Source of the DNA: Bacteroidales bacterium
GTDB lineage: Bacteria; Bacteroidota; Bacteroidia; Bacteroidales; VadinHA17
Reading direction: 5' to 3'
Length of the DNA: 64,000 bases
Assembly: GCA_035390825.1 (NCBI GenBank)
Contig: DAOOUQ010000006.1
Coordinates: 24,207 to 88,206, forward strand
Every line of letters starts with the position of its first letter. Position 1 is the first letter of the stretch. A model generated the notes under the pieces. The model was not told the DNA's origin. It did not search any database and saw nothing but the letters and a program-made list of their open reading frames with translations. Positions 742-15,638 of this stretch are shown piece after piece. The translations under genes and the position numbers were made by a program.

Positions 742-2940
742 CTACTTGTAGCGGAACTTATCCCTGTTTATTTCCACAATAAACCTGCTCGGATACGACA
801 GGAACGCATTATAGACGGTTACACAGGATGGCATGGTAATAATAAGATCCTGTTTTGCCCTGCTGCAGGCTACATAGAACAGCCTCCTCTCCTCCTCAGC
901 CTCTTCAATATTTTTCAGTGAACGTACTGAAGGAATAAGTCCGTCAAGAGCATGAGGGATGATCACCGTATGCCATTCCAGACCTTTTGCCGAATGAATT
1001 GTAGAGATTGTTAGAGGCTCATCCTCCGATTCATCGATCAACGGTGTAGTCTTTGTACTGAAATTTCCCGAGGGAGGGTCAAGTGCAAATTCAGTAAGGA
1101 ACTTCTCAAGAGAGTTATATTTTGAGGAGAGTTCAATAAGAACATTAATATCGAGAAGCCTTATCTGGTAATCATGTTCACGTGCCTGAAGGAGAGGGGT
1201 ATAGTATTCTTTTATATACTCTATCTTGCGTGGAACAGTGATATCATTTTCACGTGCCTTGGCAAGCATAGTCATAAGTCCCTTTAAACCTTCAGCAAAT
1301 CTGGCTTTAGAAAAAGTTTCCAACACGCCCGTTTTCCCGTTCAGAACCGTATCTATAATTTTCCGGGCGGTCATCTGGCCGACTCCCGGAAGGTATTTAA
1401 GGATCCTGTGCCAGGCTACCGCGTCGTAAGGGTTCTGAATAATGCGAAGGCAGGCAATAACGTCTTTTACATGTTTCCTTTCGCTGAATTTCAGGCCGCC
1501 TGCAGCTACATAAGGTATGCTTCTCCTGTTAAGTTCAACTTCAATATAGCGGGCATGCCAGAATGCCCTTACAAGTATCGCAATATTGCTGAATGATATT
1601 CCCCGTTCGCGATATTCAAGGATCCTGTCGACAACATATTCTGCTTCAGCTTCCTGGTCGTAGAATTTCCTGACCTCAGGGAAAGTTTCTGATTTTATGC
1701 CTGAGTAAAGTCTTTTCTTGTATCCGATTCTTGAATTCAGAATAATCTCATTTGTAAAGTCAAGGATCTTCTGGTTGCTCCTGTAGTTTTCCTCAATTTT
1801 GATGACCCTGCAACCCGGATATTTCCGGGGAAATCTCAGGATATTCTCATAATTGGCGCCCCTGAAGGAATATATACTCTGGGAATCATCGCCAACGACC
1901 ATAACATTTCCTGATTCTCCTGCAAGAAATTCAACAATCTGTTTCTGGATTATGTTAGTATCCTGGTATTCATCAACCATTATATATTTGAAGGCACTGT
2001 TAAGCCTTTTCCGGAAGGTCAGATTATCGCGAAGGCAATTCCTCAGGACTTCCATCAGGTCGTCATAGTCGAAAATCCGGCAAATCTTTTTATATTTTTC
2101 ATATCCCTGACTGATAAGTTCAATATCGGCTGTAAATTCAGCGAGCCCTGTAAATTCCTCATCAATTACCTCTTTTATTGTAAGGTTCCTGTTTCTTGCC
2201 GATGATATTATTTCCCGGATCCTGTTTTTCCCCGGGAATGCTTTTCCGGTCTTTTCTGTTTTGAGTTCCGACCTGATCAGATCTATTGTATCGGCTGAGT
2301 CTTCTTCATCAATGATTGTGAAATCAGGAGGAACATCAATGAGATTGGCATATTTCCTGAGGACAAAATTTGCAAACGCATGGAATGTTCCTCCAAAGAC
2401 CTTCTGTGCAGAGTTGTCCTTCAGCAATTGCTGAACCCTGCCCAGCATTTCGCCGGCTGCTTTCCTTGTAAAAGTCAGGAGGAGCATGTCTTCGGGGCTG
2501 ATGCCATTCTCCATCATGAAGGCAACCCTGTAAACTATCACCCTCGTTTTTCCGCTTCCTGCGCCTGCAATTACAAGTACAGGACCTTCAATGGATGTCA
2601 CTGCTTCGAGCTGCGCTCTGTTAAGTTCTCCCTTGTAGTTGATCCTGTAATTCATGTCAAGAGTGATCTCATGCTGCAGTTGGGGACGGCTTTCAATGGA
2701 GGCGATTATTTCCCGGAGCTCCGTTATCTTCCTGGCAGTCTTGTCGGTGGTCTCAATTTCGGGGAAATCGTCGGGTGAAAAATCAGACAGGTCCGACTTT
2801 GCAGGCGTTGTTGCGCCTGAGTAACCGGCCTTTAATTGTGAAGCGAGCCCTTCAATCGAATCGAGAAATGATCTTCCTGATCCTTCCGGATGTCCGGAAC
2901 ATTGATCATCATTAAAACCCTTTTCAAGATCAGAAACCAT
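742..2940 (-). CDS. UvrD/Rep/PcrA-family ATP-dependent DNA helicase
   Basis: 732-aa ORF with SF1 helicase motifs: AGAGSGKTRV (Walker A), VDEYQDTN, ENYRS, TIHSAKGLEW, YVACSRAK. It has an acidic N-terminal extension of about 100 aa. Confidence 0.9.
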   Translation of the reverse strand: MVSDLEKGFNDDQCSGHPEGSGRSFLDSIEGLASQLKAGYSGATTPAKSDLSDFSPDDFPEIETTDKTARKITELREIIASIESRPQLQHEITLDMNYRINYKGELNRAQLEAVTSIEGPVLVIAGAGSGKTRVIVYRVAFMMENGISPEDMLLLTFTRKAAGEMLGRVQQLLKDNSAQKVFGGTFHAFANFVLRKYANLIDVPPDFTIIDEEDSADTIDLIRSELKTEKTGKAFPGKNRIREIISSARNRNLTIKEVIDEEFTGLAEFTADIELISQGYEKYKKICRIFDYDDLMEVLRNCLRDNLTFRKRLNSAFKYIMVDEYQDTNIIQKQIVEFLAGESGNVMVVGDDSQSIYSFRGANYENILRFPRKYPGCRVIKIEENYRSNQKILDFTNEIILNSRIGYKKRLYSGIKSETFPEVRKFYDQEAEAEYVVDRILEYRERGISFSNIAILVRAFWHARYIEVELNRRSIPYVAAGGLKFSERKHVKDVIACLRIIQNPYDAVAWHRILKYLPGVGQMTARKIIDTVLNGKTGVLETFSKARFAEGLKGLMTMLAKARENDITVPRKIEYIKEYYTPLLQAREHDYQIRLLDINVLIELSSKYNSLEKFLTEFALDPPSGNFSTKTTPLIDESEDEPLTISTIHSAKGLEWHTVIIPHALDGLIPSVRSLKNIEEAEEERRLFYVACSRAKQDLIITMPSCVTVYNAFLSYPSRFIVEINRDKFRYK

Positions 2941-3194
2941 CAGTAACCGGTTTTATTCCCACAGTCCAATACCAGGCCATGAAGGTATGAATAAGAAGAA
3001 TTAAATACAAAAGATCAGGAATAACGGCAGAGTAAATTATCCACAATGTAACCCGTATGGTAAAAAACAAGCAGGGTAAAGTGTTCATGTGAACAGGTTA
3101 AATTGACGGGAGTGATCCGTATCGGCAGGACTTTTTTGCGATTTGATTTTCTTTATTACCTTACGGCATTATAACATTTTACAAGCCCATACCG

Positions 3195-3923
3195 ATGAAA
3201 GGATCAATTATATTTTTTCTGTGCTTTACATTTATCAACGCATTTTCACATGAGAACCCCGACAGCACACTCAGAAAGCTGAAGACTGATGCCAGTGTCA
3301 GCATCAACAGCAACGGGATAGCTTCAATTCCTGCATTCTCACTTGGCGATCCAGCTGTAATTGCGTCAGTTAACCTCTCAAAAAACAGGTTCAGCTACGA
3401 TCCTGTTCTTGCCTATGGTTTTGACATGAAACCGTGGTTTATTGATAACTGGCTTCATTATAAGCTCATACGCAGAAAGGATTTTGAAATAAGGGCCGGA
3501 TTTAATTTCAGCACATTCTTCAGTAAAACCAGGCTGCCCGAAATGACTATTCTTCAGGGTGACCGGTATTTTGCCCTTGAAGTTGCAGGAATATACCGTA
3601 TAAGTCCCAACACATCACTTACCCTGATGTACTGGAATGACAGGGGCCAGGAAAAAGGAACGATAAAGGGGCATTTCTTCAACCTACTTGGAGAGATTTA
3701 CAATATCAGACTGGGCAACAGGCTTATGATGATGACCGGAGCCCAGCTTTTCGCAATCAATTATGAGGGTAATAACGATGGAGTATTCGTCTCGCCAAAA
3801 ATCTCGTTTTCCATGAGAGAGATGCCTTTCAGCCTGTACTGGCAGGCTACTCAGGTTATTGACAGTAACATCGATCCGAATCCGGGATTTAAATGGAATA
3901 TCGGACTATCATATACCCTGTAA
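3195..3923 (+). CDS. hypothetical secreted / outer-membrane beta-barrel-like protein
   Basis: N-terminal signal peptide (MKGSIIFFLCFTFINAFS), alternating beta-strand-like pattern, and a strong terminator after the stop. No family recognised. Confidence 0.5.
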   Translation: MKGSIIFFLCFTFINAFSHENPDSTLRKLKTDASVSINSNGIASIPAFSLGDPAVIASVNLSKNRFSYDPVLAYGFDMKPWFIDNWLHYKLIRRKDFEIRAGFNFSTFFSKTRLPEMTILQGDRYFALEVAGIYRISPNTSLTLMYWNDRGQEKGTIKGHFFNLLGEIYNIRLGNRLMMMTGAQLFAINYEGNNDGVFVSPKISFSMREMPFSLYWQATQVIDSNIDPNPGFKWNIGLSYTL

Positions 3924-3930
3924 AAGCAAA

Positions 3931-3957
3931 AAAATCCCGGTACAAGCCCGGGATTTT
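3931..3957. terminator. Rho-independent-type hairpin, potentially bidirectional
   Basis: AAAATCCCGG (3931-3940) pairs perfectly with CCGGGATTTT (3948-3957) across a 7-nt loop. It starts 8 nt after the stop codon of the 3195-3923 gene. Confidence 0.75.
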
Positions 3958-4207
3958 CAAATTGAAGAGAGATTTTTAATCAACTGATTCTTCATTATTT
4001 AATACTACATAACCGATTATGTAAATGTTCCCTGAGAGTCAATTTACATTGAGAGTGTCTTATGATAGTGCCCCCGGATCAGTGTGGACATAAGGGTAAT
4101 GAACCGTTGCCGTGGCGGTTCCCTCAAAACAGTGAACCTTGATGTCGCCCTGAAGAGTGAGAGGAAGGAAACTTAAAATTGTCCGTTTGATCTTTTATTT
4201 GTGCTTA

Positions 4208-4363
4208 TTAATTATCCCCTCTTCCCTTCCGGCTGACACACAGTTTGCAACTGTAAACCCTTCCGTTTTCACGAAGCCATCTGCGCAGCGCTTTGGCAAT
4301 CTTTCTTTTTTTCAGGAGAACGGTTCCAGTTTCGACTGATGTGATTTCGTAGATTGCCTTCAT
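4208..4363 (-). CDS. hypothetical small basic protein (51 aa; 84 aa if the upstream ATG at 4462 is used)
   Basis: ORF MKAIYEITSVETGTVLLKKRKIAKALRRWLRENGRVYSCKLCVSRKGRGDN. A promoter-like element lies inside the longer 84-aa version, which favours the short form. No family recognised, so it could be spurious. Confidence 0.2.
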   Translation of the reverse strand: MKAIYEITSVETGTVLLKKRKIAKALRRWLRENGRVYSCKLCVSRKGRGDN

Positions 4364-4388
4364 GATTATAAACTTTAATGTTGAAGTA

Positions 4389-4417
4389 AAAATAACACCC
4401 AGGTTCATTGCTGTCAA
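4389..4417 (-). promoter_or_regulatory. candidate promoter for the small ORF at 4363
   Basis: On the minus strand, TTGACA (4417-4412) is followed by a 17-nt spacer and TATTTT (4394-4389), 25 nt upstream of the ATG. TATTTTTA also resembles the Bacteroidetes TAnnTTTG -7 box. Confidence 0.3.
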
Positions 4418-4806
4418 GTAGCACAAGGCCAACCAATGAGCAAACGCGGTTGTTTCAACCATTGTTTGTCAGGTTAAACAGGAGAATGGTGTAATTAATC
4501 CGACGGCTTCGCCCGAAAAAAATGTTCACCCGTCAAAACCTGTACAGAATTTACGGGGATTCTTTCCGAAATCATCTCCGTCAAAGACACTATGAAATTA
4601 AATTACTGAATAAGTGACATTTATTGCAACAGCACCAATCAGGCTGCCTGAATATGGGGTTTTGACAAAAGGTGAAAAATTCCGGACCAGAATAGGTCCA
4701 TAAGGCTCATCTAAGGTTTGCCAGGGAGAAAATTCTCACAGTTGGACTTCATTTTTTTGAAAACCAGGCTGGGAATCTGAAAGGAATTACAGAAATCAGG
4801 CTATTT

Positions 4807-5244
4807 TCAATCAGCTTCCCAGATTGCAACGAGAAGTGTGAATACAGGAAGCAGTACTGATCCATAAACAGGATTATACCAGGCTGTAAGAGAAAATGGC
4901 CCGCCCAGAGCAAAGACCCATACTGCAAATGATATAGTGGAAATAATAAGCTGGCCCGCCTTCGCAACTTTCTGTACTCTGTTAAGGTACAGAGGGGTAA
5001 GGATGGCAAAGACGGCAAAAATCAGCCAGTTTACAAGTTTGGCCTCTTCAGCATCTGTTAATTGTTTCACAGTTCCAAGGACAAAGATGTAACCGGCAAC
5101 AAGTTCTGCAGGGATATATTTGAAAAGCCTGTCAAAATAACCATCCCTTGAAGTTATCCGGGCAGCTGCTGACGTTTCTGTTCCAGCATTTTCAGCCCTG
5201 GTGATCTTCAGAACGTCCTGTGATGTTATGATTTCCCGCGCCAT
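4807..5244 (-). CDS. hypothetical four-TM membrane protein (145 aa)
   Basis: Polar N-terminus of about 45 aa followed by four hydrophobic segments (LVAGYIFVLGTV, WLIFAVFAILTPLYL, LIISTISFAVWVFALGG, GSVLLPVFTLLVAIW). It lies 43 bp downstream of the S8 gene on the same strand. Confidence 0.6.
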   Translation of the reverse strand: MAREIITSQDVLKITRAENAGTETSAAARITSRDGYFDRLFKYIPAELVAGYIFVLGTVKQLTDAEEAKLVNWLIFAVFAILTPLYLNRVQKVAKAGQLIISTISFAVWVFALGGPFSLTAWYNPVYGSVLLPVFTLLVAIWEAD

Positions 5245-5287
5245 ATTATGAAAAGTATTGTGTCGGTAATATTGATATTTGCAACAG

Positions 5288-6928
5288 TCAGACAGTTGTC
5301 CTGGTCTTTGATCTGCGATGGGGCAGTCTTTTGCGGTTTACAAGTTCCATCGCTCTTTTTACAGCTTTTTCAGCGTTCACCCTTCCGTAACCGTAATAGA
5401 TACTGTGTCCGGTTTCATCGTATAAGCCACCGTCAATATCGATTTTGTCGGCAGTTGCGGCAATTATCTCCCTCACCTCAAGCCATGTAAGTTCCGGATT
5501 TACAGAAAGGATAAGTGCAGCTGTTCCGGCCACTCCGGGGCATGAACTTGAGGTGCCTCCGAAACTGTCGGTATAATTACCTTCGGGATTATAGCCACTC
5601 TCTCCGTGGCGGTCGGTAGTATAGATTCCTTTTGTAAGCGGCTTCGGATGATTGAAAGGAGCATAACCAAAATCGCTGCTTGGAAATGAGCACCAGACGT
5701 TTTTGCCAAAGTCGCTGTAAATGCTTCTTTTACCCGTATCGTTACACGCCGAAACAGCAACAACCTTTTCATAACCTGCATATCCGTCATACCGGCAATC
5801 TTCATTGCCGTTACCTGCAGCGAATGTTATTATACAACCCTTCCCTCCCCTTCCGGCTTTAATCGCATAATCAATCGCGAGCCGGGTGCTGTCGGGAAGT
5901 CCCACCTCAGCAAAATGAACCGGATCGTCGGGATCGCTCCAGTTGCCATCTTCCGGCCCCCAACTGCATGAAATGATGTCAGCACCATGATCAGCAGCCC
6001 AGATGAACGCATTTGCTTCAGCTATTGAACCAAGATTGGAACTAAGACGTACCGGCATCAGCATTGCGTCAGGGGCAACACCTGAAGCCTCAACTCCTGA
6101 TGCTGCTGCAACACCTGCACACGCGGTACCATGATTATCATAAAAGGTTTTGGGCCCCGGGTCATCGTTGTTTTCTGTAACATCCCTCGGATTAATGACC
6201 TTCCCTTTCATTCTGAATTCCTGATGATCAGTATCCACTCCATCATCAATAAGGGCGATTACTATACCCTTTCCGGTGGTCAGTTTATGGGCAGAGTCGG
6301 CACTTATACCTGCATCCACTGTCTTCCTGTTGATTTTTGTTTTCATTAAATGCCATTGGTCCGGATGTATCCTTTTCAGGCTTCTTTTTCTTATCAGCTC
6401 AGGATGACAAAGCTCGACCTCAGGCATCTGAAGCAGTTTTTCAGCGATTTCGAACACCCTGACCCCTGTATTCTCAGGTGCGCCAACAAAATAAGCATTT
6501 TGCGCATAACGGGGCCGTTGTTTGATTTTCAGTCCGTTATCAGTGATAATCTTTTCACAGACGGCAGCTTTGACTTCATCATGGAACTTAATGAAAATAT
6601 TCTCGGTGTAGAGAACAAGTGTATTGCTTTCAGCATCTATGAGCACCTTTCCTGCAAACCGCAGACCCGGTTCATCCTTTAGAGCCGATTTTGCCATGTC
6701 GCGTGCAAGAGCTGGTTCACTAACTGATTCTTTTGCCTGGAAAACAGATATATCCGCTTCTGGAAACTCTTCTATAAGTTCAAAATCTTTCAGGATCTTC
6801 TTTCCCCTTGCAGAACTCATTATGTTCTTCATTGTTCCCGGTTTCATCAGCCTGACAGCAACCATATCGCTGCTTTCCCGGAGGACATATTTCCTTCCGT
6901 TCTTACCGCCCAGAGTATATGTATACAT
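5288..6928 (-). CDS. S8 family serine peptidase (subtilase) with an unassigned N-terminal region of about 220 aa and no signal peptide
   Basis: Catalytic motifs are ALIDDGVD (D228), HGTACAG (H266), AAGNGN (N372) and GGTSSSCPGVAG (S460). The N-terminus MYTYTLGGKNGRKYVLRESSDMVAVRL is not a signal peptide. Confidence 0.9.
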   Translation of the reverse strand: MYTYTLGGKNGRKYVLRESSDMVAVRLMKPGTMKNIMSSARGKKILKDFELIEEFPEADISVFQAKESVSEPALARDMAKSALKDEPGLRFAGKVLIDAESNTLVLYTENIFIKFHDEVKAAVCEKIITDNGLKIKQRPRYAQNAYFVGAPENTGVRVFEIAEKLLQMPEVELCHPELIRKRSLKRIHPDQWHLMKTKINRKTVDAGISADSAHKLTTGKGIVIALIDDGVDTDHQEFRMKGKVINPRDVTENNDDPGPKTFYDNHGTACAGVAAASGVEASGVAPDAMLMPVRLSSNLGSIAEANAFIWAADHGADIISCSWGPEDGNWSDPDDPVHFAEVGLPDSTRLAIDYAIKAGRGGKGCIITFAAGNGNEDCRYDGYAGYEKVVAVSACNDTGKRSIYSDFGKNVWCSFPSSDFGYAPFNHPKPLTKGIYTTDRHGESGYNPEGNYTDSFGGTSSSCPGVAGTAALILSVNPELTWLEVREIIAATADKIDIDGGLYDETGHSIYYGYGRVNAEKAVKRAMELVNRKRLPHRRSKTRTTV

Positions 6929-6959
6929 AAGATGCCGTTTAATTGTTCTTATTCTGACA

Positions 6960-8237
6960 TCAGAATGGCTGTCTGATCCTTTCCATCACTTCCATGCACA
7001 TCCTTCCGTTGTGATAGGGGCATATCCAGAACCCGCCCTTATCGCCCGACGGAATGCCGGTCTCAGAGATATAGCTGTACCAGCCTCCGTTTTTTGAATC
7101 GATAAAATTCCTCTTAATGAATTCCCAGCATTTAAGTGACTTATCCATATAATCCCAGTCACCGGTAAGCTCAAATGCATTCAGGTAACCCACAACAGTC
7201 TCAGCCTGCTCCCACCATGAGCGCTGAAGCCTTACATGACCGGTTGAGGTGTTTTTCTCAGTAAGCATGCTTCCATCGGCCTGATAACCCTCGGAAGCTG
7301 CATCTGCAACACTGATGCTGACTTTTTTTACCGTCCCGGTAAGTTCGGTGTCGTTCAGCAGTGTCGCAGCTTCATAAAGCAGCCATGATGATTCAATGTC
7401 ATGACCGTAGGAGTCAATATCAGAGGTCCTGTTCCAGGATCTGTCCATAAAACAGATAAGATGGGAAGTCTTTTTATCTATTATATGGTCGAGAAACAAT
7501 CCGACAAGGTTCCGCAACCGCTGACCGACCAAGACATCACGCGAAACCCTGTAGAGGTTTGCATAGGCCTCCATCACATGAAGATGGGTGTTCATCGTTT
7601 TTTCATCCTTTTCCGAGCTTTCCCCTATCATTTTGTCGCGTATCCTCTGCCAATCGCGGCTGAAAACCTCGAAATAACCATTGTTTTCCCTGTCAAGGGC
7701 ATGCTTTTCAAAAAGGTCGAATATTTTCATTGCTTCTGACAAAGCTTCCTTGTCGCCTGTGGCTCTTGAATATTCAGAAAGAGAGTAAATGAAAAAAGCA
7801 TTTGTATAAACCTGTTTCCTTGTATCAGAAGGTGTACCGTCGGCCTTAAGGCTATAGAATGCCCCTCCATTCTCCCTGTCGATAAAATACTTAATAATAT
7901 AGTCCTTTGCCCTTTGGGCCATTCTGAGATACATGGTATCGCCAGTGACACGGTATGCCGATGAAAATGTCCATAGCACCCTTGCATTAAGGATGCCTCC
8001 CTTGTCGGCATCGGGATAGACACGGTTCTGAATGTCGACCCTTCCATAGAAACCTCCGCGGACGTTGTCAGCCATTTTTGAAATCCAGAAGGGAAGTATG
8101 TTCCCCGTGAGATCTTCACTAACCTCTTTGCGCAGCTGTTCAGTTTTTTGTTTTAGTTCAGGACTGCTGGTTTCCTGTGAATATCCCTGAAATGAATAAA
8201 TCAACATCAAAGGTAAGATGAAGAGAATTTTCTGCAT
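6960..8237 (-). CDS. AGE-family (N-acylglucosamine 2-epimerase-like) epimerase/isomerase, secreted
   Basis: The ORF-track start at 8300 is a TTG. The first ATG (8237) gives the signal peptide MQKILFILPLMLIYSFQGYSQ. AGE-like signatures: GGFYGRVD, RVLWTFSSAYR, WWEQAE..GYLNAF, NGGWY. Confidence 0.75.
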   Translation of the reverse strand: MQKILFILPLMLIYSFQGYSQETSSPELKQKTEQLRKEVSEDLTGNILPFWISKMADNVRGGFYGRVDIQNRVYPDADKGGILNARVLWTFSSAYRVTGDTMYLRMAQRAKDYIIKYFIDRENGGAFYSLKADGTPSDTRKQVYTNAFFIYSLSEYSRATGDKEALSEAMKIFDLFEKHALDRENNGYFEVFSRDWQRIRDKMIGESSEKDEKTMNTHLHVMEAYANLYRVSRDVLVGQRLRNLVGLFLDHIIDKKTSHLICFMDRSWNRTSDIDSYGHDIESSWLLYEAATLLNDTELTGTVKKVSISVADAASEGYQADGSMLTEKNTSTGHVRLQRSWWEQAETVVGYLNAFELTGDWDYMDKSLKCWEFIKRNFIDSKNGGWYSYISETGIPSGDKGGFWICPYHNGRMCMEVMERIRQPF

Positions 8238-8330
8238 GGTTATTCTTTTAACAAAGGTTGTACCGCAAATTGAACATAAAATATAAGTATAATTATTCAA
8301 ATAATGATTATGTATTTTTGATAACTTTCA

Positions 8331-8450
8331 CTGCGGCTGTTAAAACCCGCGTAAGCCATGCGGTAAGGGCGCAGAGCGCGGGTGGAAGGTGAGAGATCAC
8401 CTCACGTGAGGGGGGATGGGTCGTGTTGAAAACAGGGCAGATGACGAGGG
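8331..8450. other. GC-rich structured island in an AT-rich divergent intergenic region (candidate leader, ncRNA or relic)
   Basis: Hand count gives about 61% G+C over 120 nt against under 25% in the flanks. Nested or competing stems: CCCGCG (8346-8351)/CGCGGG (8377-8382); AGGTGA-GAGA-TCACCT (8387-8402); palindrome CCTCACGTGAGG (8400-8411). Confidence 0.3.
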
Positions 8451-8504
8451 AAGAGATAAATTTAAAAGTTCAAGGTTTATGAACCATAAAATTATGTAAG
8501 GAAC

Positions 8505-11500
8505 ATGAAAATTAAAGGATTATCAGTTACTTTATTACTTATAGTATCAGCATTGTCGCTTAAAGGACAGGTTAAGATTTCCGAACAGGAATGGGTATTG
8601 CCGACTTACAAGGTTGCTCCTCCTGATAAGAATCCTATGTTCTTTAACGGGGAATCGTATCAGGGAGCATCGAAATACATATATCCCTATGGGATGAATG
8701 ATGTAATCTCCGATCAGAAGGTCGATAAAGCCTGGAAGGCAGTTACAATGGAAAATGAATACATTAAGCTCTGTGTAACTCCGGAGATAGGGGGTAAGCT
8801 TTATTATGCCACCGACAAATCAAACGGCTATAACTTCATTTACAAAAACAATGTTGTAAAGCCTTCAAATATCGGCATGCTTGGCGCATGGGTATCAGGA
8901 GGTATTGAGTGGTGTGTCCTGCATCATCACAGGGCATCTACATTCCTTACGGTCGATTACACGACAACTGAAAACAGCGATGGCAGCAAGACTATCCGTA
9001 TCGGGGAGACAGAACCACGGCACAGGATGAGATGGACTATAGGCATCACAATGTTTCCCGACAGGTCTTATTTCGAAGCTGAGGTCAAAATCCTGAATCC
9101 CACCCCGTTTACTCATACTTTTCTCTACTGGGCAAACGCAGCTGCCCACACAAATGAAAACTATCAGGTCATATTTCCTCCGAGCGTCAACATTGCCACT
9201 TACCATGCCAAAAACAGTTTTACAAACTGGCCATTTTCGACAGAAGTATATAATGGACAAGATTTTACGAAAGGCGTTGATGTGAGCTGGTGGAAAAATT
9301 CCCCTAATTCAAATTCCTTCTTTGCGTGGGATCTGAAGGAAGATTTCATGGGGGGTTATGACCATGGAAGGGAGACAGGAACAGTGCATATCGGCGATCA
9401 TAATGTTGTCAAAGGTGCAAAGCTGTGGAAATGGGGCTCCGGGCCGGCCGGACAGGCGACTGAATCACGGCTGACCGAGACAGACGGCCCTTATGTAGAA
9501 ATCATGACAGGTGCGTTTTCCGACAACCAGCCCGACTACAGCTGGATAAGGCCATACGAGGTAAAGACTTTCAGACAATACTGGTATCCCGTAAAGGATA
9601 TCGGGGGTTTTAAAAATGCCAACCTCAACGGCGCAGTAAATCTTGAACAAAAGGAAAACAACCAGGTATTCCTCGGGTATTACTCCACAAAAAAAATAGA
9701 AAAGGCAGTTATACTGCTTAAAAACAAAGGGAAGGTGGTACTTAATGAAGAGGTGGAAATATCTCCATCAAAGACCTTTACCAGGACAATCAGGATCGGT
9801 TCACCCTTCGGACTCACTGATCTTTATACCGAAATGAAAGATAATGCCACGGGCGAGGTTTTGGTTTCATATACTCCGGTAAAAACAGAAAAAGCACCGG
9901 AACTGCCTCCTTCAGTCAGTCGTCCGAAAGACCCGAAGGATATACCTGCGGTGGAAGAGCTTTTTCTAACAGGAAGCAGGATTGAACAGTTTTACAATCC
10001 CACTCTTAATGCCATGGATTATTATCTGGAAGCTCTGAAACGCGATCCTGATGATATCCGCACCAATACTGCTGTGGGAAATCATTATTTAAAGAATGGC
10101 GATTATCTGAAGGCAAGGAGCTATTTTGCCAGGGCTGTTAAAAGATTAACAAAGGACTATACGAGGCCCTCAACATGTGAAGCACTTTATCTTCAGGGCA
10201 TTACACTGAAATCACTTGGCCTGTATGAAGAAGCAGAAGATACCCTTTACAGGGCAACATGGGATTATGCCTGGCATTCGGCTTCTTATCTCGAGCTTGC
10301 AAGAATATCCTGCCTGAAGGGTGATCTTCAGAAAGCCCTTGAACAGATTGATGAATCGCTTTCAACCAACTCCAGGAACAACAGCGCTGTCTGCATTAAA
10401 TCGTCAGTTTTGAGGCATCTTGGAAAAGCAAAGGAAGCGCTGGAACTCATCAAGGGATTTGCCGAAAAGGATCCGCTTGACTTCAGATCGGGAAATGAGT
10501 TTTACCTGAACCTGAAAGCATTTGGCGAGGAAAAGGCTGCTGAAACCGCACTTGAAGACCTGAACAGGGAAATGCGTGATTTTGACCAGAATTATCTGGA
10601 GCTTGGTATAACTTATCTGAACGACGGGTTCGTTGATGATGCTGCAGATGTTTTCAGCAGATTCACCGGGAAAAATCCCATTGTGAATTATTATCTGGGA
10701 TATATTTCTGATATAAAAGGAAATAAAGAAGAAGCTGCCAGATATTTCAAAAATGGTTCCGGACTACCAGTGGATTACGTGTTCCCTTTCCGGCTTGAAA
10801 CTGTTGATGTTCTGAAAAAGGTGGCAGATTATTTTCCCGATGATGCCCGGCCATGGTATTATCTCGGGAACCTGCTGTACGACAAGCAGCCCGGCAAAGC
10901 AATAGAGGCATGGGAAAAATGTGTTAGGCTTGATCCCTCTCTGGCAATTGCTCACAGGAACCTGGGGTGGGGATATTATCATTATACGGGCGACGGACTG
11001 AAGGCGATTCAGGAATATGAAAAAGCAATGGCCATTAAAAAAGATGATCCGCTGTACTTTGAAGAACTTGATGCCTTGTATGAAATGAGCAATGCTCCTG
11101 TCGAAAAGAGGCTTGCTCTTTTTGAAGGTCATAACGAAACCGTGTCTGCCAGGGACAATGCCTTTGCCCGCCAGATCACTGTTCTTACGCTTGCCGGAAA
11201 GCCTGAAAAAGCCGTTGAATACCTGAAAGGGCGAAAATTCAGTTACAGGGAAGGATCATCGAAGGTCAGGGACATCATCATTGATGCTCATCTCATGATG
11301 GGAAAGAAACTGATGACCGGGAAGAAATATGACATGGCTCTTGAAGAGTTCCTCCTTGCAAGAATACCTGAAGAGGAAGCGGCGGGAAGCAGAGCCGGGA
11401 ACAGGAATATACAGGTCGATTATTTTATTGCCAAAGCATATGATGCTCTCGGGAACAGGACAAAAGCAAGGGAAAGCTATGAACAGTCAGCTTCACGGGA

Positions 11501-11828
11501 GGCGGGAAGCACATCTTATGTAAAATATTATCAGGCAATGAGCCTCGTGAGACTTGGGAAAAAGAAGGAAGCAGAGGAAGCGCTTAAAGCCATTATCGAG
11601 GAAGCAGAAAAACAGATCGGCCGGACCGCTTCACATGATGTCGACTTCTTTGCAAAATTCGGCACAATGGAAGCCGAAAATGCCAGGCTCTCATCCGCGT
11701 ATCTGCTTAAGGGTTTGGGATTAAAAGGTTTGGGAGATACAATCGCTGCAAGAGAAAATCTTTCAAAAGCAGTCCAACTCTCAAACTCAAATCTTTGTGC
11801 CTTATCCGAATTACAGGATATGCGATAG
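8505..11828 (+). CDS. DUF5107 domain protein with C-terminal TPR repeats
   Basis: Signal peptide present. N-terminal motifs PEIGGKL, GGIEWCVLHHHRAS, FLYWANAA, DGPYVEIMTG and QPDYSWIRPYE match my recollection of DUF5107. The C-terminal region of about 600 aa is TPR-like. Confidence 0.75.
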   Translation: MKIKGLSVTLLLIVSALSLKGQVKISEQEWVLPTYKVAPPDKNPMFFNGESYQGASKYIYPYGMNDVISDQKVDKAWKAVTMENEYIKLCVTPEIGGKLYYATDKSNGYNFIYKNNVVKPSNIGMLGAWVSGGIEWCVLHHHRASTFLTVDYTTTENSDGSKTIRIGETEPRHRMRWTIGITMFPDRSYFEAEVKILNPTPFTHTFLYWANAAAHTNENYQVIFPPSVNIATYHAKNSFTNWPFSTEVYNGQDFTKGVDVSWWKNSPNSNSFFAWDLKEDFMGGYDHGRETGTVHIGDHNVVKGAKLWKWGSGPAGQATESRLTETDGPYVEIMTGAFSDNQPDYSWIRPYEVKTFRQYWYPVKDIGGFKNANLNGAVNLEQKENNQVFLGYYSTKKIEKAVILLKNKGKVVLNEEVEISPSKTFTRTIRIGSPFGLTDLYTEMKDNATGEVLVSYTPVKTEKAPELPPSVSRPKDPKDIPAVEELFLTGSRIEQFYNPTLNAMDYYLEALKRDPDDIRTNTAVGNHYLKNGDYLKARSYFARAVKRLTKDYTRPSTCEALYLQGITLKSLGLYEEAEDTLYRATWDYAWHSASYLELARISCLKGDLQKALEQIDESLSTNSRNNSAVCIKSSVLRHLGKAKEALELIKGFAEKDPLDFRSGNEFYLNLKAFGEEKAAETALEDLNREMRDFDQNYLELGITYLNDGFVDDAADVFSRFTGKNPIVNYYLGYISDIKGNKEEAARYFKNGSGLPVDYVFPFRLETVDVLKKVADYFPDDARPWYYLGNLLYDKQPGKAIEAWEKCVRLDPSLAIAHRNLGWGYYHYTGDGLKAIQEYEKAMAIKKDDPLYFEELDALYEMSNAPVEKRLALFEGHNETVSARDNAFARQITVLTLAGKPEKAVEYLKGRKFSYREGSSKVRDIIIDAHLMMGKKLMTGKKYDMALEEFLLARIPEEEAAGSRAGNRNIQVDYFIAKAYDALGNRTKARESYEQSASREAGSTSYVKYYQAMSLVRLGKKKEAEEALKAIIEEAEKQIGRTASHDVDFFAKFGTMEAENARLSSAYLLKGLGLKGLGDTIAARENLSKAVQLSNSNLCALSELQDMR

Positions 11829-11834
11829 AACAAT

Positions 11835-15638
<3,804 letters not shown>

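Follow-up and report, generated by a model that had tools for sequence, protein, structure and literature searches.

In a 64,000-nucleotide stretch of a Bacteroidales bacterium contig (DAOOUQ010000006.1, assembly GCA_035390825.1; hereafter the window), a subtilase gene of family S8 is directly followed on the minus strand by a gene for a small protein with four transmembrane (TM) helices, here called the 4TM protein (Table 1). The lengths of the two open reading frames (ORFs), the 43 bp between the S8 stop and the 4TM start, and the 31 bp between the stop of the upstream AGE-family gene and the S8 start were all as given in a preliminary description made from the sequence alone. Each of the two proteins has hundreds of full-length homologues (56–90% identity), so the ORFs are not a chance pair. 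The pair follows the logic of protease-effector systems, with a new effector family that carries no name. The signal at the level of this family is strong and new; the function is what we infer.

Table 1. Features of the S8-4TM locus and its flanks (positions in the window)
Feature	Positions	Strand	Basis
S8 protease gene, 546 aa	5288-6928	minus	ORF, Pfam Peptidase_S8, hydropathy
Domain A, extra N-terminal alpha/beta domain, unnamed (S8 residues 1-98)	6635-6928	minus	AlphaFold2
I9-type propeptide, b-a-b-b-a-b (S8 residues ~99-185)	6374-6634	minus	AlphaFold2 and Foldseek
Basic junction IRKRSLKR, candidate autoprocessing site (S8 residues 179-186)	6371-6394	minus	
Kexin/furin-like catalytic domain (S8 residues 190-530)	5339-6361	minus	
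4TM protein gene, 145 aa, large unnamed family	4807-5244	minus	ORF, homologues, AlphaFold2
N-terminal peptide M-x-R-x-[IV]-[IV]-[TS]-x-x-D (4TM residues 1-10)	5215-5244	minus	Family alignment
Variable linker, ending in clade-specific [VA]-[TS]-[KR] before D34, candidate cleavage site (4TM residues 11-33)	5146-5214	minus	
Conserved four-helix core (4TM residues 34-145)	4810-5145	minus	Family alignment, AlphaFold2
Terminator-like hairpin, ~100 nt past the 4TM stop	4683-4700	minus	Consensus scan only
AGE-family gene (N-acetylglucosamine 2-epimerase-like), upstream of S8	6960-8300		
DUF5107-TPR gene, 1,107 aa, divergently transcribed	8505-11828		

A signal-less kexin-like protease

The Pfam model Peptidase_S8 (PF00082) covered residues 219–514 of the S8 protein (E = 1e-45). 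The catalytic residues D228, H266 and S460 were found in subtilase order, as described previously, but the remaining residue then listed, N372, is a glycine, and the oxyanion asparagine is N373 within AAGNGN (370–375). The only PADLOC match was to the generic "subtilase" model (4e-14). Phmmer searches against the PDB gave Kex2 (2e-28), furin (7e-25) and mirolase as the best solved relatives, and the protein carries the kexin-like motifs DDG, HGT-x-CAG, WGPEDG and GNG...DC-x-YDGY, together with a QWHL start of the mature domain. In the PDB alignment, D327, D377 and D381 face acidic residues of Kex2 that we take to be its S1 pocket. Judged by its sequence, the enzyme belongs to the kexin/furin-like subtilases (S8B), without a signal peptide or P-domain. 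Kexin/furin convertases, including bacterial kexin-like enzymes such as Aeromonas ASP (3hjr), are its best matches in sequence and fold, with which it shares the motifs, the QWHL start and a basic junction after an I9-type prodomain. It differs from them in lacking a signal peptide and the C-terminal P-domain (PF01483; no Pfam match), and in carrying an extra domain before the prodomain. The P-domain is present in its relatives L046 and L099 (linked to a 4TM gene), L169 and L171.

The first ~215 residues had been left unnamed. Pfam indeed returned no match there, and no I9 match at the level of sequence, but the region could be assigned from structure prediction to an I9-type propeptide and one extra alpha/beta domain. 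The AlphaFold2 (AF2) model of the full-length protein is confident for residues 1–180 (predicted local distance difference test, pLDDT, 73–97), with the catalytic domain below 50 in many segments because of the shallow alignment. The propeptide (elements E104-115, H121-130, E134-137, E145-149, H157-166 and E171-180; pLDDT 79–97) found its best Foldseek matches in the pro-forms of subtilases, namely fervidolysin (1r6v), ProN-Tk-SP (3afg) and pro-subtilisin E (3whi); furin and Kex2 came next. Between the propeptide and the QWHL catalytic start, a basic-rich junction is conserved in the S8 alignment; by analogy with the furin/kexin pro-junction, its IRKRSLKR sequence may be the autoprocessing site. 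The preceding domain A (order b-b-a-a-b-b-a-b, pLDDT 73–89) matched, together with residues 104–180, the tandem ferredoxin/ACT-like folds of 2fgc and 6vz8_F. It is kept in distant S8 proteins linked to the 4TM family (hhalign 100% for L044; a similar N-terminal sequence in the L099 partner). A search with the N-terminal domain returned just fragments of the same S8 family, the reach of the search being limited by its word index.

As had been noted before, the protein has no signal peptide. The ORF is already maximal, leaving no possible upstream extension, and its N-terminus is polar (top 12-residue hydropathy of 0.72 within the first 60 residues); no 19-residue segment exceeds a hydropathy of 1.1 anywhere in the protein. 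All of more than 100 full-length homologues start with MYTYTFGGK or bear a short polar extension. Since the ORF is maximal and the homologues start alike, the missing signal peptide is a family trait and not an artefact of annotation. This bears on the explanation that the preliminary description had set against its own reading, the I9-type propeptide of a conventionally secreted protease. Such a propeptide does lie directly before the catalytic domain, which comes close to that case, but neither a signal peptide nor a lipobox accompanies it and no homologue has a signal peptide. A conventionally secreted pro-subtilase was rejected on these grounds.

Some S8 homologues (P0219, at L006 8001–9920, P0203, P0205, P0207, P0210, P0211 and P0237) form a subgroup of 639-aa proteins that are extended by ~90 aa at the C-terminus. 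In P0237 the extension is annotated in precomputed Pfam as a lamin-tail domain (PF00932), a usually extracellular domain that is odd in a signal-less protein. The S8 and 4TM frames are split in L020, L031, L050 and L169–L171, from long-read Microflora Danica metagenome-assembled genomes (MAGs). These splits are probably homopolymer frameshift errors and not pseudogenes, and they inflate the counts of "fragment" proteins in databases.

The four-helix membrane protein and its family

The 4TM protein consists of a polar N-terminal tail of 45 residues and four hydrophobic helices, the layout proposed earlier, and was modelled by AF2 with a pLDDT of 90 and a predicted template modelling score of 0.82. 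Basic residues are found in the tail and in loop 2, with two in loop 1 and none in loop 3. This charge pattern fits a predicted orientation with both termini inside, the bias being weak owing to the basic residues of loop 1. The protein ends four residues past TM4.

A profile search of 1.84 billion representative sequences returned 1,979 clusters at 50% identity, of which 1,030 have E ≤ 1e-10. Members occur in Bacteria and in three lineages of Archaea; the bacterial genomes include Bacteroidales, Brachyspira, Exilispira, Gammaproteobacteria, Actinomycetota, Dehalococcoidales, Verrucomicrobia, Clostridia, Cyanobacteria and Melainabacteria, the last two with several copies per genome. The preliminary description had considered that the protein might belong to a known housekeeping family; we found no known family of any kind. 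Pfam, NCBIfam, PADLOC and PHROGs gave nothing above noise for the window protein and 45 diverse relatives (sub-threshold hits were Trep_Strep in 7 members and TIGR04222 at E = 0.015). Comparison of the family profile with PDB sequences gave no match (best E 0.19), nor did the fold have a Foldseek match (best E 1.2 in the PDB and 0.31 in BFVD). Members are named only "hypothetical protein" in public sources, RefSeq included, and a literature search on the family motifs and on defence pairs of a U49 peptidase or subtilase with a TM protein gave no description of the family in the library searched, which is incomplete.

The family alignment separates the three segments listed in Table 1. Among 143 family representatives, the N-terminal peptide keeps R3 in 91% and D10 in 73%, and AF2 modelled residues 1–10 with a pLDDT of 81–86. 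The motif stays at the extreme N-terminus even in members with linkers of 75–170 residues. The linker itself is variable and rich in Ala, Pro and Ser, and ranges from 20 to 170 residues across the family. The core opens at the near-invariant D34 (D-x-Y-x-x-R-L-x-K-Y-I-P-A-E) and contains W73, T83, Y86, Q98, W109, a GGPF motif and T136 as further conserved positions; conserved polar and aromatic residues occupy both of its membrane faces. Some members carry cores in tandem: P0252 (540 aa) has four copies, and P0251 (809 aa) has two, after a 545-aa N-terminal region without a Pfam match. The existence of these natural twofold and fourfold tandem cores suggests that the functional unit of the core is an oligomer. 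Pfam was uninformative on the non-TM parts of the fusion proteins (P0251, P0297, P0313 and others), with a weak GIY-YIG match in P0297 only.

The family is nearly absent from phages. It was found on 2 of 2.9 million viral contigs and in none of 50,697 phage genomes, and no PHROG corresponds to it. The two contigs (L087 and L088, from IMG/VR) are the same phage, with terminase, topoisomerase and replication genes. Its 4TM gene (5974–6474) lies between the genes of an 871-aa phrog_32516 protein and a 218-aa membrane protein, and no lysis cassette was recognisable.

Pairing with proteases in Bacteroidales and beyond

In the window's own Bacteroidales clade, the S8 gene lies directly upstream of the 4TM gene on the same strand at all 42 non-redundant loci (within 3 kb). 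Whether the two genes stay together in relatives had been raised as the check on the first description, and the pair proved to be a conserved unit, including at loci without a neighbouring AGE gene (L001, L030, L042 and L056). Most clade loci share synteny over the whole block of DUF5107-TPR, AGE, S8 and 4TM genes (AGE lies upstream in 31 loci, and DUF5107-TPR is present in 24), the S8-4TM pair being appended to the AGE and DUF5107-TPR genes. The distances of the 4TM and S8 proteins are correlated (r = 0.83, against 0.76 for either of them with AGE); when AGE is controlled for, the partial correlation is 0.61, and each of the other two partials is 0.35 (permutation p = 0.0005).

At much greater divergence the association recurs with the order rearranged. 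S8 proteins of ~35% identity with the same N-terminal region still adjoin 4TM homologues of 50–55% identity. The order is 4TM, C11 clostripain and S8 in L044 (hhalign 100% across S8 residues 10–540), 4TM then S8 in the distant Bacteroidales locus L047, and, in the metagenome loci L099 and L136, a protein with the N-terminal region, S8 domain and P-domain, then 4TM. These data bear on the possibility that S8 and 4TM have no functional link, lying side by side through conserved gene order like AGE and DUF5107-TPR and acting independently. The synteny of the entire block agrees with that, as does the occurrence of either family without the other. We nevertheless consider it very unlikely, given that the pair persists when the flanks change and recurs in distant genomes, that 4TM-S8 co-variation exceeds that with AGE, and that a basic residue at the tail-core junction (see below) is specific to the S8-linked clade.

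Outside the clade, 65 non-redundant loci offered a flank of 1 kb or more, and 18 of these have a signal-less protease no further than 3 kb from the 4TM gene (S8 in 10, Lit-like U49 in 7, C11 in 1 and trypsin in 1). This enrichment is weakened as evidence by ascertainment bias, the protease queries having been taken from these neighbours. Beyond 3 kb, a single protease match was found in 198 kb of outside flanks. None of the protease partners counted has a signal peptide. In the seven U49 loci, the 4TM gene and the Lit-like gene are separated by −4 to 20 bp, and the Lit-like partners match the PADLOC Lit model; the window has S8 in place of U49, and Lit of e14 is a single-gene system, unlike the S8-4TM pair.

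Family members also occur in recognised conflict systems. Plasmid3 of Fischerella sp. NIES-4106 (L172; AP018301.1 3685–16083) carries a complete VMAP/MoxR conflict operon with genes for an EAD1-trypsin, a 4TM protein (hhalign 99.9%), an EAD1-VMAP-C protein, a MoxR-like AAA ATPase and an 877-aa FGE-sulfatase protein, in this order. The operon is a VMAP ternary conflict system as described by Kaur et al. 2020 (PMC7159879). The trypsin genes of VMAP-type systems usually occur together with Trypco1 or Trypco2 (PMC7159879), and here the gene next after trypsin, a place often taken by Trypco/Pepco genes, is that of the 4TM protein. All genes of this operon are labelled "hypothetical protein" in the record, and a second FGE-sulfatase paralogue lies at 11900–12349. 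In an Anaerolineae MAG (L074), two EAD8-trypsin genes precede the 4TM gene; they are part of a run of at least four EAD8 ORFs (1051–5800), two with trypsin and one with a helix-turn-helix (HTH) domain. Other conflict contexts comprise a TIR-NACHT-WD40 protein (L045), GmrSD (L053) and an OLD-like ATPase-nuclease (L058), and a conjugative coupling protein is encoded near the 4TM gene of L083. The metallo-beta-lactamase (MBL)-fold genes downstream of 4TM in L071, L082 and L085 are short (217–230 aa) and were not equated with protease-activated MBL nucleases.

The remaining neighbourhoods are of other kinds. Signal-less GH25 muramidases adjoin the 4TM gene in three loci (L062, L063 and L076; two distinct), none showing a clear prophage lysis context, and several other neighbours of 4TM genes are lipoproteins. 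In Melainabacteria/Obscuribacter (L066, L068, L080, L083, L084 and L086), where the 4TM gene is multi-copy, the gene of a 182–192-aa lipoprotein of unknown family follows it by 14–81 bp in all but L086, in which a homologue lies ~440 bp downstream; collagen/RHS-repeat proteins and a type IV secretion system coupling protein are encoded near the Obscuribacter loci. In the spirochaetes Exilispira and Brachyspira (L048, L051 and L055), the 4TM gene starts 27–57 bp after the gene of a 277-aa FGE-sulfatase-domain protein, which bears an N-terminal signal or anchor, unlike the protease partners.

Another possibility is that the 4TM protein helps, in the manner of a holin, to export or mature a housekeeping enzyme, moving signal-less, propeptide-bearing hydrolases across the inner membrane, in which case S8 would work in the periplasm or outside the cell in the nutrient acquisition of this glycan-degrading locus. 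Muramidases without signal peptides must reach the cell wall, and the lipoprotein neighbours point the same way. So do a complete I9-type propeptide, a kexin-like domain and relatives with a P-domain or lamin-tail, all typical extracytoplasmic features, and a stable, vertically inherited locus amid secreted carbohydrate-active enzymes (CAZymes). Charged C-terminal tails are typical of holins, and the 4TM protein, ending where it does, has none. The scarcity of the family in phages, extending to the fold search in BFVD, also speaks against such a helper, as do partners that act in the cytoplasm (EAD-trypsin-HTH and Lit-like U49 proteins); the VMAP, TIR-NACHT, GmrSD and OLD contexts would be left unexplained. 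We regard it as quite unlikely, and the holin idea was not retained as the principal explanation in view of the phage data and of GH25 loci unlike prophage lysis cassettes.

Around the window's pair itself, secreted CAZymes are encoded. The immediate neighbours of S8 are the AGE-family protein, whose N-terminus resembles a signal peptide, and the 4TM protein, with no ATPase ORF among them. The hairpin downstream of the 4TM gene probably marks the end of the transcription unit. The ~880 bp beyond the 4TM gene (3924–4806) contain just overlapping ORFs of 30–84 aa, none convincing, with a second terminator-like hairpin at 3930–3958 (minus strand). An Rfam scan of 3800–8600 gave no match.

A possible protease-licensed membrane effector

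Site-specific proteolysis licenses the Pepco, EACC1, MBL, alpha/beta-hydrolase and gasdermin effectors (bioRxiv 10.1101/2025.11.14.688446). Our preferred reading, which we hold as possible though short of probable, is that the S8-4TM pair is a protease-licensed membrane effector module with a new, unnamed effector family. S8 would be a cytoplasmic furin/kexin-like processing protease, made as a zymogen with an I9-type propeptide and an extra N-terminal domain that is, speculatively, a candidate sensor. The 4TM protein would sit in the inner membrane with its tail in the cytoplasm, and the conserved peptide of ~10–20 residues, held on its flexible linker, would bind the cytoplasmic face of the bundle, which is very conserved, and so hold the bundle in an inactive state. 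Once freed from its propeptide, S8 would cut the tail at the [TS]-[KR]/D34 junction, at or near R33|D34, and the freed oligomeric cores would alter membrane permeability, leading to growth arrest, death or a regulated permeability change. This proposal draws on the strict pairing and co-variation of the two genes in the clade, on the signal-less proteases and conflict systems that recur around family members, on the N-terminal peptide, kept across linkers of 20–170 residues, and on the tandem cores, besides the junction residue described next.

At the junction of tail and core, one residue varies with the protease partner. The residue before D34 is K or R in 76% of 120 homologues from the S8-linked clade, in a [VA]-[TS]-[KR] context. 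Across the family (132 representatives), Pro or Ala precedes the core and K and R together account for 8%, and the U49-linked members carry QQE[KT]P at the same junction. A basic P1 residue fits the predicted kexin-like S1 pocket.

The roles could also be reversed, with the protease as effector and the 4TM protein as its membrane anchor, sensor or activator. The bundle would sense, by its conserved faces, a perturbation of the membrane or envelope, and its N-terminal peptide would recruit or activate the cytoplasmic protease, which would cut targets of the cell or of an invader as Lit cuts EF-Tu. The Lit-like partners, matching the PADLOC Lit model, agree with this, and a generic docking peptide fits better than a class-specific site with a peptide conserved regardless of protease class. 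High conservation on both membrane faces is expected of a sensor or channel, and co-variation is compatible with any physical interaction. Such a membrane sensor was initially proposed for EACC1 (PMC7159879), but EACC1 proved to be a cleaved pore-former (bioRxiv 10.1101/2025.11.14.688446). Reversed roles would leave the partner-specific junction residue unexplained, and the protease-free tandem cores and the many loci without a recognised protease suggest an activity intrinsic to the 4TM protein. We judge this arrangement unlikely.

Several observations weigh against the licensed-effector reading. With T or S at P2, the junction is not a canonical dibasic furin site, and its conservation could reflect shared descent. 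An I9 propeptide and a kexin-like Cys-rich domain would be more usual in an enzyme that works outside the cytoplasm. About 70% of the outside loci have no recognised protease nearby, and S8 proteins with the same N-terminal region occur without a 4TM gene within 6 kb (L169 and L171); because each family occurs without the other, the coupling is obligate in neither direction. In the window's clade, the mean distances (4TM 0.44, S8 0.34, AGE 0.34) show that the locus diverges at rates like those of its neighbours. Given this and the synteny of the block, the pair occupies a stable locus amid CAZyme genes that is passed on vertically and is not a defence island. No defence gene lies near the window's pair, and its S8 has no sensor, EAD or NTPase domain. 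The earlier inference of a conflict module therefore holds in part: the family stands beside signal-less proteases of four catalytic classes and in recognised conflict systems, but the window copy does not stand in a conflict-system setting. It looks like a fixed, core-like module, whose role may not be defence; because of the stable locus without defence gene or sensor, a defence role for it would be borrowed from distant relatives only.

The closest parallels are the Pepco/Trypco1-2, EACC1, MBL-fold nuclease and alpha/beta-hydrolase effectors (PMC7159879; bioRxiv 10.1101/2025.11.14.688446), where a small non-enzymatic protein likewise stands beside a signal-less protease. There, too, one effector family goes with several protease classes (trypsin, S8 and cysteine protease). 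The resemblance extends to position, a 4TM homologue (not the window copy) directly following EAD1-trypsin in the ternary operon of L172, with L074 also EAD-linked, and to a short tethered terminal segment that cleavage could remove, although the putative inhibitory segment of the 4TM protein is N-terminal. Unlike those systems, the window copy is sensor-less and occupies a conserved chromosomal locus. Pepco is a soluble beta-barrel former and EACC1 a single-TM alpha+beta protein, whereas the 4TM protein is all-helical and integral to the membrane. No Pepco-, Trypco- or EACC1-type Pfam match was found at E ≤ 0.1 in 45 diverse family members; the library presumably includes these models, since neighbouring genes were matched by EAD1, EAD8 and VMAP-C, which stem from the same study. 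Pepco and EACC1 were ruled out on this ground and by fold class. Evans et al. list ten families and describe none of them as multi-pass helical membrane proteins (bioRxiv 10.1101/2025.11.14.688446), CATASP and MPE being set apart by description only.

The statement that none of the named modules applies was thus borne out, for these ten families by description and for gasdermin and ietAS as follows. Gasdermin-protease pairs, whose protease classes include S8, share with the S8-4TM pair an adjacent protease, a membrane-acting partner and a short autoinhibitory peptide that a single cut is proposed to set free. The 4TM protein lacks the gasdermin fold, however, being constitutively a helical bundle in the membrane where gasdermin is soluble and inserts once cleaved, and its tail is N-terminal where that of gasdermin is C-terminal; a gasdermin system was excluded by this architecture and by the Pfam and PDB Foldseek results. 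In ietAS (IetA ATPase and IetS S8), a signal-less S8 is likewise found in a two-gene arrangement, but here the partner is the 4TM protein, and the lack of an ATPase beside S8, with PADLOC giving only the generic subtilase match, led us to discard it. The TM effectors of cyclic-oligonucleotide-based antiphage signalling systems (S_4TM and SLATT) were also ruled out, with no Pfam match for the window protein and 45 relatives and no cyclase seen among the neighbours scanned.

A bolder version of the proposal, which we consider doubtful, is that the 4TM family comprises integral-membrane "ball-and-chain" effectors licensed by proteolysis and that one Bacteroidales family has fixed them as a core, sensor-less two-gene module with a cytoplasmic furin-like convertase, regulated self-permeabilisation having become part of its normal physiology. 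The licensing of effectors by proteases (gasdermin, Pepco, EACC1 and MBL) is coming to be recognised as a dominant principle of immunity in prokaryotes, and it has eukaryotic parallels. If the licensed-effector reading is true, the 4TM proteins would be a further protease-associated effector family and the first to be a pre-inserted helical bundle rather than a soluble pore-former. They would represent a mechanistically different effector, one that resides in the membrane from the start and has a tethered N-terminal peptide as its gate, and cytoplasmic furin-like convertases would have a role in bacteria. The Bacteroidales pair offers a minimal and tractable case, with two genes, no sensor, a single predicted cleavage site and clear point mutants. 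Because it is inherited vertically and in a core-like way, one may also ask if modules of this type can be domesticated to serve functions outside immunity.

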